This document shows positions 33,001 to 39,000 of a stretch of DNA of 50,933 nt, piece by piece. Position numbers: made by a program. The DNA is taken from positions 1-50,933 of the IMG/VR virus record IMGVR_UViG_3300045988_150450; one strand, given 5' to 3'. This stretch comes from a virus. Each line of letters begins with the position of its first letter. Position 1 is the first letter of the stretch.

Positions 33001-36000
33001 CCGGAAAGCCCGATTATCGTTGGTATGCTGCATGATGTGACCAAAATTGGCAAGTATATGTCTACTCAGGATATGAATCCTGTCACTCATGAGATTGAAC
33101 AGTGCTACATCAATAATCCGATGTATTCCGGTTTTGGTGGGCATGGTAATGATTCTGTATGCAAGGTTGAACTGCACTGTGAACTGACAGAAGAAGAGCG
33201 GCTTTGTATCAGGTATCACATGGGGGCTTATGAGACAGCAGACTGGGATGAATTTGATAAGGCAATCAGAGAGTTCCCAAATGTACTCTGGACTCATACC
33301 GCTGACATGATCGCATCCAAATGGTTGGAGGACTAATCAATGAAAACCAACAAGCACACCAAAAGAAGACTTAATCCTGGATTTGTTATTCTTGTTGTAA
33401 ATGTAGCGTTGATTTTATCCCTTGTAGTAACCTTGAGTTACATGAATACCTTGAGGAGAAATCTCAGTGAATCTTATCAACAAGCTGAGGAACTGAGAAC
33501 TGCACTTGTAACTGCTAACAAAGCAGAAGAAAATGCTGTACAAGCCCTGCAAGATTTCAAGGCTGAGTATTATCAAGTTCAGGAAGATAACCTGTCAATT
33601 CCCGGATCTATTCTTGAGCCTATTACTAAGACCAATACAGTATCAAAGGTTTTGACAGTTAAGGTGACCGCATATTGTTCTTGCGTGAAGTGTTGCGGGG
33701 TTTGGAGCAAAGACCATCCTTCTCGTCAAGGTACAGACTATGAACAACATACGACTTCTGGCACAATTCCTGTGGCAGGACGGACTGTTGCCGTAGATCC
33801 TGATATTATCCCACTCGGATCTAAAATCCTGATAGACGGCCACGAGTACATTGCAGAGGACACAGGTAGTGGTGTCAAGGGAAATCATATTGACATTTAC
33901 TTTGATTCTCACGAGGAAGCCTTGGAATGGGGTGTGAAGACACTGGAGGTGGAAGTATTTGAAGACGAAATTCTATGATGTAAAATACTGTGGAGTGAGA
34001 GAGGAGAAGATTCTGACTGCGAGACCAAAGTTGGACAGGGAAAACTTACTTCATCTGTACAAATTTATTACTGAGCGATACAACATCCATCTACTCAAAG
34101 ATGTAGACAAAAAAGATCCTCCTTGGACAAATGATGAAGTCTTGAGAAATTTCAGGTTCACTAATGTTCGCAGAGAACATGACAGAGAAACAAAATGGCT
34201 CATAAAAAATATCACAAGCAACCCTGAGTTATGCTATGAAGATAAATTGCTCAACTGCATACTGTTCAGGCTATTCAATAAGCATGAAACAGCTGAGTTA
34301 CTTTCTATGCCAATACCATTTTTAGAGGCAACAAATTGGGATCCTGAACCGTACAGAGAAGAGTTTGAATCTTGGAAAAAAGAGCATCCTAATGAAACTC
34401 TGTTTACAGGGGCTTTTAACACTGGTGGTTTGAAAAGAGCGCTTAAATGGTATTTGCCTTGGCCAGATCCTCAAAACAGTGTAGAGATGAGGGTGATGTG
34501 GTTCATGAAATATCTCATAGATCAGGATGTGATGGGAAGAATCAAGGCTTGTTCGGATCAATCCAAGGTCTGTAAGGAGCTGTCATCTTTCATGGGGATT
34601 GGATACTTTTTGTCGTATCAGATATTTGTTGATATGACATACATTGAAGAATTTCCATTCTCTGAAAATGAATTTACAATTGCTGGTCCAGGATGCAGGA
34701 TGGGTTTGCAATATCTGTTTAAGGATGCAGATGGTATGACCTACGATGAGTGCCTGTTTTGGCTGAGGAATAACATTGATAGGTTATTTGCAGACAGATT
34801 GGGTCTACCTTGGAATCCTGATAAACTGTTCAGAGACTTACCTGAGTGGGATCGACACATGAATGTGATGAGCCTTGAAAACTGCTTCTGTGAATTATCA
34901 AAATACATCAGAGCCAAAACAGGTACTGGGAGACCAAGAAAAATCTATAGAGGAGGAAACAAATGATTCCTGTATTTGTACCAAGCTATCATAGACCAAA
35001 GGCTACATTCCTTGGGAGATCCTTGTATTATGAGTTTCCCATGTATGTGTTTGTACGAAAAGAGGATGTTTTGAACTATGAATATCTTACACTGAGACCA
35101 AACACAACCCTTGTTACTCTTCCTAGAAAAGTATCTAACATTGGAGAAACTCGCAGGGCAATGATCAAGTATGCAGTAAAACAGGGCATACCTAAAGTAT
35201 TCATGATCGATGACGATGTGAGCAGATTGGATTTTTCTGTTTGGGATTCTTACAAGGAAGTTGTAAGAGCCTCAGGCACTGTTGAAAGGAAGAGAGAGGA
35301 TTTTACAAGAGTTCTTAGATGCTGGCAGAAAGAATGGGAGCTGTATGATAATTGTGCTATGTTTGGTTTATCTTACCGTCCATTCAGTTGGTCAATGAGA
35401 CGGTATCAAATAAACATGGCACAGAGAGCTCAACTGCAGCAGTGTGTTGGTGTAAATGTAGAACTGATACATGAAGCAGGACTCAACTATCAGAGTAACT
35501 CTGTTGTTGGCAATGAGGATCTATTCCTGCAACTTGAGTGTTATAAAACTGGACTTGAGTGCTTGAAAACCAATCATCTACAGTATGATTGTACAAATAT
35601 GGGTGCTGGAACTGGAGGTTGTAATGATTCCGAGGAAGGGTCTATCCAAGCCAAACAGGAACGCCGAGTTGCAGCTTTCTTGGAAGCCTGTGATAGACCT
35701 GAGCTCATCAAAGTTGCTCAAACTCGCAGTGGTGTTAAGAGCATCAAATTCGTATGGCCTGAGATTGCTAAAATCATGGGAGAATGATATGTATTTGTTA
35801 TTGATTCTGTATCTACTCCTAGGAGTGGCTCTTGCTGAACTTATGAGAAAAGAGCAAACAATACACTCTTGGGAACAATATGCAATTATGATTATATTAC
35901 ATCCTGTAGTCATCATATCAGCTTTATGTTTGACTCTATATACTTATTGGAGGAATAGAAGAAAATGATGTACAGACATATGAGTGATTCAACATATCTG

Positions 36001-39000
36001 GATCTCGCATACCATTATGCTGAGAGAATGAGTGGTTGTAAGAAGGTTGCAGTTGGGTCTATAATTAAAAGTCCTGGTGGAATAATTTCCTTGGGAGCAA
36101 ACCGATCGATTCCGGATTTATGTATTGGGAGAGGATGTCTCCGAGTGGAAAAATATGGTGATGACAGTAAACTTCACCGAAATCCTGAAGATTGTAGAGC
36201 TATCCATAGTGAGATTGATGCAATTACATCTGCAGCTCAAAATGGGATTAGTACTGAAGGCACAACCATTTATGTTACTCGATATCCATGTGAGGCCTGT
36301 GCCAGAGCAATCATTTCAGCCGGTATAAAGTCTGTGATCTATGGAGGAACTGCAAAAATAAGTGACGAAACACAGAGAATGTTTGATATGTATAGTGTTT
36401 TGTGTACACATGTACTGAACTGGAAGAAGGACAATTCTGACCGATGAACATTTACCTTACACAAAAACAGAAAAAGACTCTTGAACAGGCCCGGAATACT
36501 TATGGTGATTCCGCACAGATTCTTGTTGCAAATGAGGAATTGTGTGAGCTTGCAGCAGTATGTGCTAAGTTCCCCAGATACTCTGACCGTGAAGAAGCCA
36601 AGCAGAAACTGCATGATAAAGCTGTTGATGAGGTTGCAGATGTGTTTGTGATTCTTGAACATGTCATTAACATTTTTGGACTCACAGAAGAAGAACTCAC
36701 AAACAGAGTTGGAGCCAAGATTGATAGGTTATCTCGCTGGCTTGAGTCCTCTGACAGTATGCAGAGAACTACTGAAGACAGAGAAGTAGTGACACAGCCA
36801 AGAATAGTCATTGATCACAAGATAAACAAGGTTGAATATTCTGCAAAATGCAAGAATTGTAAGAACATTTTTCACTTCAAAGAACTGAAATCCGGGGGAA
36901 AGTGTTACAGATGTGCTATAGGAGACGATAACTACGAACCAAAGGAGTAATCTGAATGGCTTTTACATTATCTGAGTTTGATGCTCTGGTTGGACAAGAC
37001 AGCTATGTTCGCTGTATGGGAAAGAAACGCCTGGACAATTCCATTGTAGATCAAAAAGCTGCAGATGCGCATTTGTTCTCTGGTGGACAGATCGGCTGGT
37101 GGGTACGATCAGGGTACATTATTGTAGATATTGATGAGGGGAAAGAGCAAGCACTTCAAGTTGTAAAGAGACTTGGATTGAAGACTCTTATTGCCAAGAC
37201 TCCAAAAGGTCTACATCTGTACTTTAAGTGTAACAAAGAATACCCTCAGCGTGTTGGTATGGTTTTACCTTGCGGGCTGAAGTGTGATTTTCGCTGTGCC
37301 AATAAGGGTTATGTGATTCTTCCATTTGGATCAGAGGGTCGTTCCTTTAACAAGAGGAGAGAAATTGCAGAACTTCCACCAGAGTTTACACCAATGGTGA
37401 ACCGCAAGGAGAGTCTTCTCAACTTGAAAGAGGGTGATGGTAGAAACTCTACACTGTTTGCACATCTCATGGCCTACAAGAACAGAGGAGCCTCTGACGA
37501 GCAAGTTGCAGAAATGGCTCATGTTATAAATGAGATCATTTTCAAAGATCCTATGGATTCCAAGGAACTTGAGCGCATAATTGAAAACACTCACAATTAT
37601 GAGGCTTCACAGCAGTTTGATAATCCATATCTCCTCTACAATGCAAGAGGAGTACCCAATGGTGTAAATCATAGAGCTATATGTGATTGTTTTGTAAATA
37701 AGGGTGACATGTTTGCTTTGGGTGGAGAATGTTATCTGTACAGGGATGGGGTGTATGTTGAAGCTAGCAGCCGTGTAAGAAATACTATTAAGGATATGAT
37801 TGTTGTTGATAGCCTGATATCTCAAAACCGTATCATGGAATGCTTTAGGTTGATCATTGATGATGAACGCCTTAAGAGAGATCCTTCTGAGCTCAACATT
37901 GACAAAAATCTTATCAACTTTAAGAATGGTGTATGGGATATTGAGAAGCAGCAGCTTTTACCTCATGATAGCAAATACCTGCAAACCATTCAGATTCCTC
38001 ATGAGATAAGAGAGTACAAGCCATTCAAAGATACACGGCTGTATGATTTCTTTTCAAAAACCAAGATACCCAAAGAAGACATTAAGATGTTACTCAAGTA
38101 CATGGCTTATTGTCTTACTCTGCAAAATGGATTGAAGACCTTTATGGTTTTGTGCGGGCAATCAAACACCGGTAAATCAGTTTTGATCAGATTCTTTGAA
38201 GCTCTTGTAGGTAAACAGAATGTATCATCTTTGAGTATGCATGAACTCAATATGAGGTTTTATCCAGCTCAGTTGTATAATCGGCTTTTGAATTCCTGTG
38301 CAGATAACTCTTCACTCCCACTCAATTCCATTGAGAATTTGAAGAAAATCACCGGTGGGGATCAGATTATGCACGAGCGTAAAGGCAAGGAACCTTTCTT
38401 CTTCACTCCATTTGCCAAACTGATTTTCTCATTCAATCAGATGCCACTACAGTTGGAAGAAAAGTCTAATGCTTTTTACAAGAGAATGCGTATCCTGTTC
38501 ATGAACACTGAGCTGTTTTTGAACGATGAGTATGTCAATGATCTTTGTAGTGAAGAAGGTGTAACAGAAATAATCCCATATTTGTTACATCTATTGCCTG
38601 TATGCAGTATTCCCAGAACCAGCCTCAGCGATAAGTATGTTGAATCTCTCAGGCAGGATTCTGATAGCATTCACGCATTTGTTGTTAAATGCTGTATTGA
38701 AGGAAACAACAGTACTGTAGAAAAGAATGCTCTGTATGAAGAATACTGCAGATTCTGTATAGATAATGGAAGAGAAAGCAGTAAAAAGCACTCATTTATG
38801 CGTAATATGAGAGCACTTGGTTACAAAGAGGTCAGAGATCCAAAATCAAGAGATTATCTATGGTGTGGAATCGGCCTCAGAAAGAAACGGGGTGAGTGAT
38901 ATGCAATATGTTGGTATGCCTCCATACTCGGGTATGCCCCAAGAATACAACGGATCTTACTGGTACAAAATTCCTGGCTATCCCTATTGGGTGTCTCCAG

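Follow-up and report, generated by a model that had tools for sequence, protein, structure and literature searches.

A clade-1 aGPT-Pplase gene coupled to a TAGT-type glycosyltransferase gene in a predicted hydroxymethyl-pyrimidine DNA hypermodification system of a siphovirus-like phage

We analyzed a 50,933-nucleotide stretch of viral DNA (IMG/VR virus record IMGVR_UViG_3300045988_150450, positions 1 to 50,933; hereafter, the window) in which the gene for a clade-1 aGPT-Pplase, Pp1, overlaps a gene for a predicted DNA glycosyltransferase (GT). A deoxycytidylate (dCMP) deaminase gene follows in the same predicted operon, and a second cluster at 45.3-48.2 kb encodes an ADDT-like protein, a P-loop kinase of the 5-hydroxymethyl-2'-deoxyuridine (5-hmdU) DNA kinase family, and a hydroxymethylase of the thymidylate synthase (TS) family. 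The genes central to the analysis are as follows:

33959..34966, + strand: Pp1, a clade-1 aGPT-Pplase (Pfam HMUDK_hel) of 335 aa with a TTG start (PF18723, E 9.4e-67).
34963..35787, + strand: predicted TAGT-family GT-A DNA glycosyltransferase of 274 aa (PF20691, E 1.2e-18; phrog_842).
35965..36447, + strand: dCMP deaminase (Pfam dCMP_cyt_deam_1, PF00383, E 7.6e-18; phrog_174, E 8e-35).
45312..46289, + strand: ADDT-like protein of the clade-2 aGPT-Pplase type (PF18724, 28.7 bits, cut-off 26.2; motif E247-S-N-L-C251).
46286..46894, + strand: P-loop kinase of the 5-hmdU DNA kinase family (PF18748, E 6.4e-27).
47392..48186, + strand: TS-family hydroxymethylase, predicted to be of the dCMP type (PF00303, E 2e-25).

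A first-pass annotation had described five open reading frames (ORFs), from Pp1 to a MazG-like gene, with characteristic motifs and an ATGA overlap, and all of these were recovered where it had placed them. The Pp1 start codon is preceded by GGAGGTGG, with a GGAGG-type ribosome-binding site, and the protein contains PPWTNDEVLRNFRFTNVRREHDRETKW (translated ORF 33959-34966). Pp1 matched PF18723 with 225.8 bits (cut-off 25) over profile positions 6-276 of 281 and was 38% identical, across 98% of the query, to proteins of ViI-like phages; 494 phage records were matched, and several of the ViI-like ones carry the depositor labels 'aGPT-Pplase1' or 'clade 1'. Pp1 is a clade-1 aGPT-Pplase, a predicted all-helical paralogue of the amino-acid:DNA transferases, in agreement with the first-pass assignment. 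The published aG/PT-PPlase1 list comprises ViI gp160, PhiW-14 gp72, and the C-terminal half of SP10 gp186 (Table 3, PMC5889632); Pp1 shares full-length homology, signature motifs, and a Cys-Glu pair with these proteins and with M6 gp55. In an alignment of 31 clade-1 sequences (22-59% identity), R40, F67, R72, D75, R104, and D225 of Pp1 were invariant, the motif residues P55, F67, N69, R72, and D75 that make up the family hallmark were invariant or at least 90% conserved, and C311, E312, and K315 were at least 90% conserved. Both the N-terminal FTNxxRxxD signature and the C-terminal Cys with its adjacent Glu are present in Pp1, and the Cys-Glu pair is kept in the SP10-type fused domain. Clade-1 proteins are widespread, with 3,325 representatives at 50% clustering, and are found in ViI-, M6-, and SP10-type phages. 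Like the clade-1 phages, the window genome has a P-loop base kinase, a clade-2 paralogue, and a TS-like hydroxymethylase; unlike the founding members of the clade, Pp1 is a stand-alone protein whose gene lies 11 kb from that of the kinase, is translationally coupled to a TAGT GT, and stands upstream of a dCMP deaminase, and the hydroxymethylase is of the Asp type rather than the Asn type. As a separate observation, many phage genomes in GenBank call the 5-hmdU P-loop kinase, or the homologue of Pp1, a 'terminase small subunit' or a 'baseplate hub protein'; these names appear to come from phrog_800, a kinase-Pp1 fusion family so named.

Sequence alignments point to a catalytic role for Pp1. In clade 2, the catalytic Cys lies four residues past a metal-binding Glu (E222-T223-x-x-C226 in the 15599 enzyme; the Cys of PUGT is C247), and this E-[ST]-x-x-C motif of metal ligand and nucleophile has been defined for the clade (PMC13458397). 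When an M6-like AADT was aligned by BLAST to a clade-1 protein (E 2e-4), E-T-V-L-C fell on Q-N-V-F-C, and G-F-G-P-W...I-A-D paired with G-L-G-P-F...I-A-T-D; in a six-sequence alignment, the register held both for Pp1 (E307...C311) and for the ADDT-like protein of the window. The putative catalytic residues of Pp1 are E307, C311, E312, and D225. Pp1 homologues are fused to a P-loop kinase in both orders (P0173, P0313, and Goe26). From the alignment of C311 with the clade-2 catalytic Cys, together with these fusions, we infer that Pp1 is probably an active Cys-dependent enzyme working on the kinase product. No reaction was assigned to the clade-1 aGPT-Pplases in the literature searched, and the pathways reconstituted in vitro needed clade 2 only, not clade 1. 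The kinase fusions would also suit a nonenzymatic Pp1, a helper domain that binds DNA or flips bases for the 5-hmdU DNA kinase, as implied by the Pfam name HMUDK_hel ('kinase, helical domain'), which derives from the SP10 kinase-Pp1 fusion; the SP10 kinase domain is active alone, and the dispensability of clade 1 in vitro also fits such a role. However, the conservation of C311, E312, and K315, the alignment of C311 with a catalytic residue, the distance between the Pp1 and kinase genes in the window, and the failure to detect a PF18748-type kinase at the Pp1 locus of phage phiRSL1 or at those of Microbacterium phages all argue against a mere helper, which we regard as distinctly unlikely. A role for Pp1 in reducing phosphorylated 5-hmdU to thymidine, appealing in that every partially modifying phage carries Pp1, was set aside because the second Cys (C309) and the Cys of the GPGC motif (C246) are not conserved family-wide.

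The AlphaFold2 (AF2) model of Pp1 (predicted local distance difference test [pLDDT] score of 90.3) is all-helical. Its top PDB match was the clade-2 structure 8z2m (PaMx11 gp46; probability 0.84, template modeling [TM] score 0.35-0.39), followed by AlkA, both of them weak matches (E >0.1). Pp1 may have a helical fold of the HhH-glycosylase-like kind, akin to that of clade 2. The ADDT hidden Markov model (HMM) gave no match in Pp1 at E values up to 0.1, and PDB sequence and profile searches with Pp1 or the ADDT-like protein did not reach 8z2m; the single PDB hit obtained from a diverse Pp1 alignment was a designed coiled coil and was treated as spurious. An hhalign comparison of Pp1 with the window's ADDT family was nonsignificant with either a shallow or a diverse alignment (the number of effective sequences for ADDT was about 1.5). 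The clade-2 transferases PaMx11 gp46 (PUGT), M6 gp51, ViI gp247, and SH-Ab 15599 Pplase2 may share the all-helical fold modeled for Pp1, and their E-x-x-x-C and G-x-G...D motifs align with it; Pp1 differs from them in having no ADDT HMM match and in its TM score of only about 0.37 to 8z2m.

The GT start codon overlaps the Pp1 stop codon as ATGA. The GT carries IPVFVPSYHRP, FMIDDDV, and NEDLFL; it matched PF20691 with 68.2 bits (cut-off 27.5) over profile positions 1-200 of 205 and no other Pfam glycosyltransferase family, and its PHROG match (phrog_842) is the group of the beta-glucosyl-HMC-alpha-glucosyltransferase. The AF2 model (pLDDT 91.4) has a GT-A fold, Foldseek returned TarS, RmlT, and TarP as the top PDB matches (probability 1.0), and superposition on viral TAGT proteins of BFVD gave TM scores of 0.7-0.8, with ~0.73 for the beta-glucosyl-HMC-alpha-glucosyltransferase. 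R64, D83-D84-D85, and E185-D186 are invariant in the GT alignment and form an R...DDD...ED signature. Validated phage DNA GT-A enzymes have the active-site motif R...DDD...ED[YF] and TarP as their best PDB hit (Pyle et al. preprint); the third motif reads E-D-L in the window GT. Judged by sequence and model together, the 274-aa protein belongs to the TAGT family of GT-A enzymes and has the DNA-glycosyltransferase signature, and the GT-A fold proposed in the first-pass annotation is upheld. The Pfam match, the fold, the R...DDD...ED residues, TarP as PDB hit, and the similarity to the T-even-type enzyme are common to the window GT and its TAGT relatives, which comprise the T2/T6-type beta-glucosyl-HMC-alpha-glucosyltransferase, the TET-associated phage GT-A (Pyle et al.), and the trypanosome base-J glucosyltransferase. 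The window ORFs that were scanned yielded neither a TET/JBP dioxygenase nor a cytosine methyltransferase, and the GT associates instead with a TS-like enzyme, as in T-even phages. Unlike the case of the TET-associated GTs, the hydroxymethyl group would arise before replication, through the TS-like enzyme, and the GT coexists with kinase, ADDT, and Pp1 genes.

The structural matches to TarS, RmlT, and TarP, together with the small membrane ORF directly after the GT gene, could also be taken to mean that the GT acts on wall teichoic acid, like prophage TarP, and alters the host surface with the help of the adjacent membrane peptide. We consider this highly improbable: the only Pfam glycosyltransferase family matched is TAGT, the BFVD neighbors are TAGT proteins that include the beta-glucosyl-HMC-alpha-glucosyltransferase, experimentally validated DNA GT-As likewise have TarP as their best PDB hit, the 274-aa protein is shorter than the matched TarS/TarP chains (about 310-560 aa), and the gene lies inside a nucleotide-metabolism operon.

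We also examined the cluster at 45.3-48.2 kb. The 45312-46289 protein is ADDT-like, fitting the clade-2 transferases by its HMM match and its E-[ST]-x-x-C motif, and a local HMM ties it to ADDT genes next to kinases in other phages; with Pp1, it makes up the two different Pplase-type genes that the first-pass annotation had inferred for this genome. The kinase gene probably starts at 46286, overlapping the ADDT-like stop codon as ATGA (the longest ORF begins at 46220), and its product is 35% identical to the M6-like kinase. The TS-like gene is the only one in the window. The active-site region of its product reads K-D-V-P-C-T...M-R-S-N-D-I-W-M-G-V-P-Y-D, and alignment with reference enzymes revealed the catalytic Cys, Asp at the position of ThyA N177, Asp at that of D169, and Asp in place of L143. 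According to PMC13326640, Asp at the N177 position confers a preference for dCMP, Asn at the D169 position marks 5-hydroxy-dCMP synthases, and a bulky residue at L143 marks methylases. The residue at the N177 position is Asn in the four controls from hmU-type phages (M6-like, SPO1-like, ViI-like, and SP10-like) and Asp in the T4-type gp42 dCMP hydroxymethylase, in the window, in all family relatives, in AB434P2, and in two Microbacterium phages. Because of the Asp residues at the N177, D169, and L143 positions, the TS-like enzyme is likely to be a dCMP hydroxymethylase with 5-hydroxymethyl-dCMP (5-hm-dCMP) as its product, which favors 5-hydroxymethylcytosine (5hmC), rather than a thymidine adduct, as the probable acceptor of the GT. 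The 5-hmdU substrate assumed in the first-pass annotation is therefore doubtful. Two other functions were rejected for the TS-like enzyme: that of a 5-hydroxy-dCMP synthase, by the Asp retained at the D169 position, and that of a true thymidylate synthase, by scores far below the TS equivalog cut-offs and by the Asp in place of L143. In T-even phages, where 5hmC is the acceptor, a TAGT gene can stand directly after gene 42, as it does in phage AR1.

The neighborhoods of Pp1 were scored with locally built HMMs in 70 IMG/VR loci (27-68% Pp1 identity, 8 kb on each side). The most frequent neighbor of Pp1 in this phage family was the dCMP deaminase, found within 1.5 kb at 49 of the 70 loci; a TAGT GT adjoined Pp1 (≤700 nt) at 14 and occurred anywhere within 8 kb at 15. 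The adjoining GT invariably lies between Pp1 and the deaminase and is restricted to a subclade with at least 52% Pp1 identity, and the relatives that have no GT retain Pp1, the deaminase, the ADDT-like gene, the kinase, and the same TS-like gene. At one locus (L069), a divergent TAGT GT is placed after ADDT and the kinase, not next to Pp1. The low frequency of adjacency, the GT-less relatives, and the L069 placement indicate that the GT is an accessory gene, apparently acquired at two different positions within one pathway, and not an obligate partner of Pp1. Thus, the coupling of Pp1 and GT emphasized in the first-pass annotation holds as an ATGA overlap in the window and not as a fixed association; in the 70 loci the pair recurs, with the deaminase as the commoner neighbor.

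The translational coupling of the two genes would nevertheless fit a model in which Pp1 and the GT act sequentially on thymidine, the GT glycosylating 5-hmdU (compare base J) or a hydroxyl-bearing group that Pp1 installs on 5-phosphomethyl-dU. Consistent with such a model, Microbacterium phages also cluster Pp1 with TAGT GTs, the Pp1 gene of phiRSL1 is flanked by three TAGT GTs and a sulfotransferase and is accompanied by a hydroxymethylase of the dUMP type, and the kinase family is proven on 5-hmdU. Yet 56 of the 70 related Pp1 loci are without an adjoining GT, relatives with no GT keep Pp1, the deaminase, ADDT, and the kinase, the GT of L069 stands next to ADDT and the kinase rather than Pp1, ViI- and M6-like phages carry Pp1 without a GT, and the window hydroxymethylase is of the dCMP type. 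The glycosylated thymidine adduct suggested in the first-pass annotation is thus possible, although we do not favor it and think it unlikely given the Asp in the hydroxymethylase.

The neighborhoods of the Microbacterium phages, phiRSL1, and Escherichia phage IME392 nonetheless argue for a real, if looser, association of Pp1 with sugar modification, and the first two are unrelated lineages in which Pp1 is clustered with TAGT-type GTs. In phiRSL1 (ORF228-238) and Microbacterium phages Luna18 and Pikmin, Pp1 clusters, as in the window, with TAGT-type GTs and a TS-like hydroxymethylase; phiRSL1 differs in its Asn-type enzyme, three GTs, sulfotransferase, and sugar-nucleotide genes, and in the Microbacterium phages neither ADDT nor a PF18748 kinase showed up within the examined stretch. 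The phiRSL1 cluster (L032, record 161.8-171.5 kb) contains an APS kinase, the three TAGT GTs, two sugar-nucleotide enzymes, the sulfotransferase, Pp1, an Asn-type hydroxymethylase, and a HAD/PNKP phosphatase; this gene content suggests a sulfated glycosyl-hmU modification, of which no description was found in the literature searched. The same literature yielded no DNA chemistry for phiRSL1, Luna18, or Pikmin. In IME392 (L026, record 31.2-37.5 kb), Pp1 is flanked on one side by a PIG-L sugar de-N-acetylase and two unannotated proteins of ~350 aa and on the other by a P-loop protein, an Asn-type TS-like enzyme, and an HD 5'-deoxynucleotidase.

Our favored interpretation, to which we assign a probability of roughly 0.55, is that the operon and the 45.3-48.2 kb cluster form a hydroxymethyl-pyrimidine DNA hypermodification system in which the GT acts on 5hmC as an accessory branch. 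The MazG-like and HD enzymes would reshape the deoxynucleotide pool, and the Asp-type enzyme would make 5-hm-dCMP, which would enter DNA as 5hmC. The GT would move a sugar from a host nucleotide diphosphate (NDP)-sugar onto the 5-hydroxymethyl group, as in the T-even phages, and would be a branch of the pathway rather than an obligate partner of Pp1. The deaminase might either supply dUMP for dTMP synthesis or convert 5-hm-dCMP to 5-hm-dUMP. The kinase would phosphorylate the resulting hydroxymethyl base in DNA. A nucleophile would next take the place of the phosphate by way of a covalent Cys-C6 intermediate; the ADDT-like enzyme would work in this way, and Pp1, which has the same E-x-x-x-C motif, probably would as well. 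The T-even hmC pathway comprises the gp42 dCMP hydroxymethylase, a dCMP deaminase, the gp56 dCTPase, and glucosyltransferases, and the window likewise has an Asp-type hydroxymethylase, a dCMP deaminase, a candidate all-alpha NTP pyrophosphatase, and a TAGT-type GT. Unlike the T-even phages, the window phage appears to be small, siphovirus-like, and Firmicute associated, with a hydroxymethylase that is nearer overall to dUMP hydroxymethylases. To our knowledge, the kinase, ADDT, and Pp1 genes present in the window are not part of the T-even hmC pathway.

Several observations weigh against this interpretation. Overall, the TS-like enzyme is nearer to the ViI-like and SPO1 dUMP hydroxymethylases (E 2e-24 and 2e-23, respectively) than to gp42 (E 2.5e-14), and the Asn/Asp specificity rule hinges on a single residue. 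Activity of the kinase and ADDT families has been demonstrated on 5-hmdU only (PMC8989533), a poor fit with a pure 5hmC genome. TAGT enzymes may accept 5hmU too, since phiRSL1 pairs TAGT GTs with an Asn-type hydroxymethylase; the idea that TAGT GTs are exclusive to phages with Asp-type hydroxymethylases is refuted by that same pairing. Pp1 is only weakly tied to clade 2 by structure (TM about 0.37) and by profile (hhalign nonsignificant), and the 70-locus sample was picked by two peptide patterns and not dereplicated.

A tension lies in the presence of a 5-hmdU-type kinase and ADDT alongside a dCMP-type hydroxymethylase and the deaminase that is Pp1's commonest neighbor. Three resolutions are possible: the deaminase turns 5-hm-dCMP into 5-hm-dUMP, the kinase and transferases act on 5hmC, or the Asp rule fails here. 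We speculate, as a tentative and rather doubtful extension, that kinase/transferase (AADT-type) chemistry and glycosylation both operate downstream of a dCMP-specific hydroxymethylase, with a Pp1 reaction not yet described. This could take either of two forms. In one, 5hmC in DNA would be phosphorylated and substituted by ADDT and Pp1, as a cytosine counterpart of thymidine hypermodification; in the other, the deaminase would make 5-hm-dUMP and both pyrimidines of a single small genome would be hypermodified, with glycosyl-hmC in addition to an amino-acid-type adduct on hmU.

The remaining genes of the operon and of the second cluster are as follows:

32737..33336, + strand: HD-type metal-dependent phosphohydrolase (phrog_5889, E 3e-26; phrog_28876 'metal-dependent phosphohydrolase', E 3e-19).
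33340..33978, + strand: 3D-domain protein with a hydrophobic N-terminal stretch (Pfam 3D domain, E 1e-17).
35789..35968, + strand: 59-aa ORF with two hydrophobic segments (ribosome-binding site, hydropathy).
36444..36950, + strand: candidate MazG-like NTP pyrophosphohydrolase (phrog_2245 'nucleoside triphosphate pyrophosphohydrolase', E 6e-14).
36956..38899, + strand: primase/D5-type helicase, the next operon gene (PriCT_1, D5_N, DUF5906; phrog_864, E 6e-82).
46821..47276, + strand: DUF1599, 'nucleotide modification associated domain 1' (PF07659, E 3.4e-9).

A promoter-like site lies at 32689-32717, and the first gene after it is that of the HD phosphohydrolase, at 32737. Because no terminator-like site was found on the + strand between 32.7 and 41 kb, the genes for the HD phosphohydrolase, 3D-domain protein, Pp1, GT, 59-aa ORF, deaminase, MazG-like protein, and primase are predicted to form one operon (~32.7-39 kb). 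From the GT through the 59-aa ORF and the deaminase (35965) to the MazG-like gene (36444), stop and start codons overlap or abut. The HD phosphohydrolase is likely to be a nucleotide-pool enzyme, and its gene is kept upstream of Pp1 in relatives. The MltA/RlpA-like 3D-domain gene sits within this replication and nucleotide-metabolism operon, its 3' end overlapping the Pp1 start by 20 nt. In the deaminase, the zinc-site motifs HxE and PCxxC are present as HSEIDAI and PCEACARAI. The MazG-like assignment of the first-pass annotation is backed by phrog_2245, its sole support, and found no match in Pfam or NCBIfam; the protein has a C-terminal, zinc-ribbon-like CxxC...CxxC tail (CKNC...CYRC) that is missing from the alignments of some relatives. 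By tblastn, the 59-aa ORF had counterparts, in the corresponding position, only in the closest relatives that carry the GT (L003 and L014, 52% and 44% identity, respectively). In L014 (10828-11001), the flanking genes are 94-98% identical, and the lower identity of the ORF may reflect either unusually fast evolution or replacement. Beyond the second cluster, the hydroxymethylase gene is followed by a small gene (48500-48973) that matched PHROG families of the polynucleotide kinase/phosphatase type; the corresponding place in phiRSL1 (L032 11814-12344) is taken by a HAD_PNKP phosphatase.

An exact 42-bp direct repeat at both window ends (1-42 and 50892-50933) suggests that the window is probably a complete, circularly assembled genome of ~50.9 kb. 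Its leftward structural arm encodes TerL, portal, major head, tail tube, an 821-aa tape measure, and Dit, and no sheath match was found among the ten structural proteins scanned in the window; the phage is read as a siphovirus-like phage of gut Firmicutes with a genome of ~51 kb. A Firmicute host is indicated by the Spo0A_C and RemA-like genes, at 30912-31313 (E 3e-18) and 29320-29622 (E 6e-30), respectively; both encode homologues of host biofilm/sporulation regulators, and the relative L014 has them too. For the TS-like gene, the closest cultured relative is an Agathobaculum phage; a megablast search of the 33- to 39-kb region against deposited phages gave no match.

The components described here belong to known families, and it is their combination and the predicted cytosine entry point that appear to be new. 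As the first-pass annotation had supposed, the combination was not described in the literature searched, a limited search, and the Pplase1-TAGT neighborhood may already be drawn in earlier surveys. The phage family offers a compact natural comparison, in which close relatives with and without the GT share Pp1, the deaminase, ADDT, and the kinase, and a kinase/ADDT set known only from hmU phages here lies beside a seemingly cytosine-specific hydroxymethylase. If our predictions are correct, this family would have a new route to 5-hmdU, or hypermodify cytosine by phosphate displacement, or hypermodify both pyrimidines, any of which would be relevant to how phages resist restriction and CRISPR systems and to enzymatic tools for DNA labeling.

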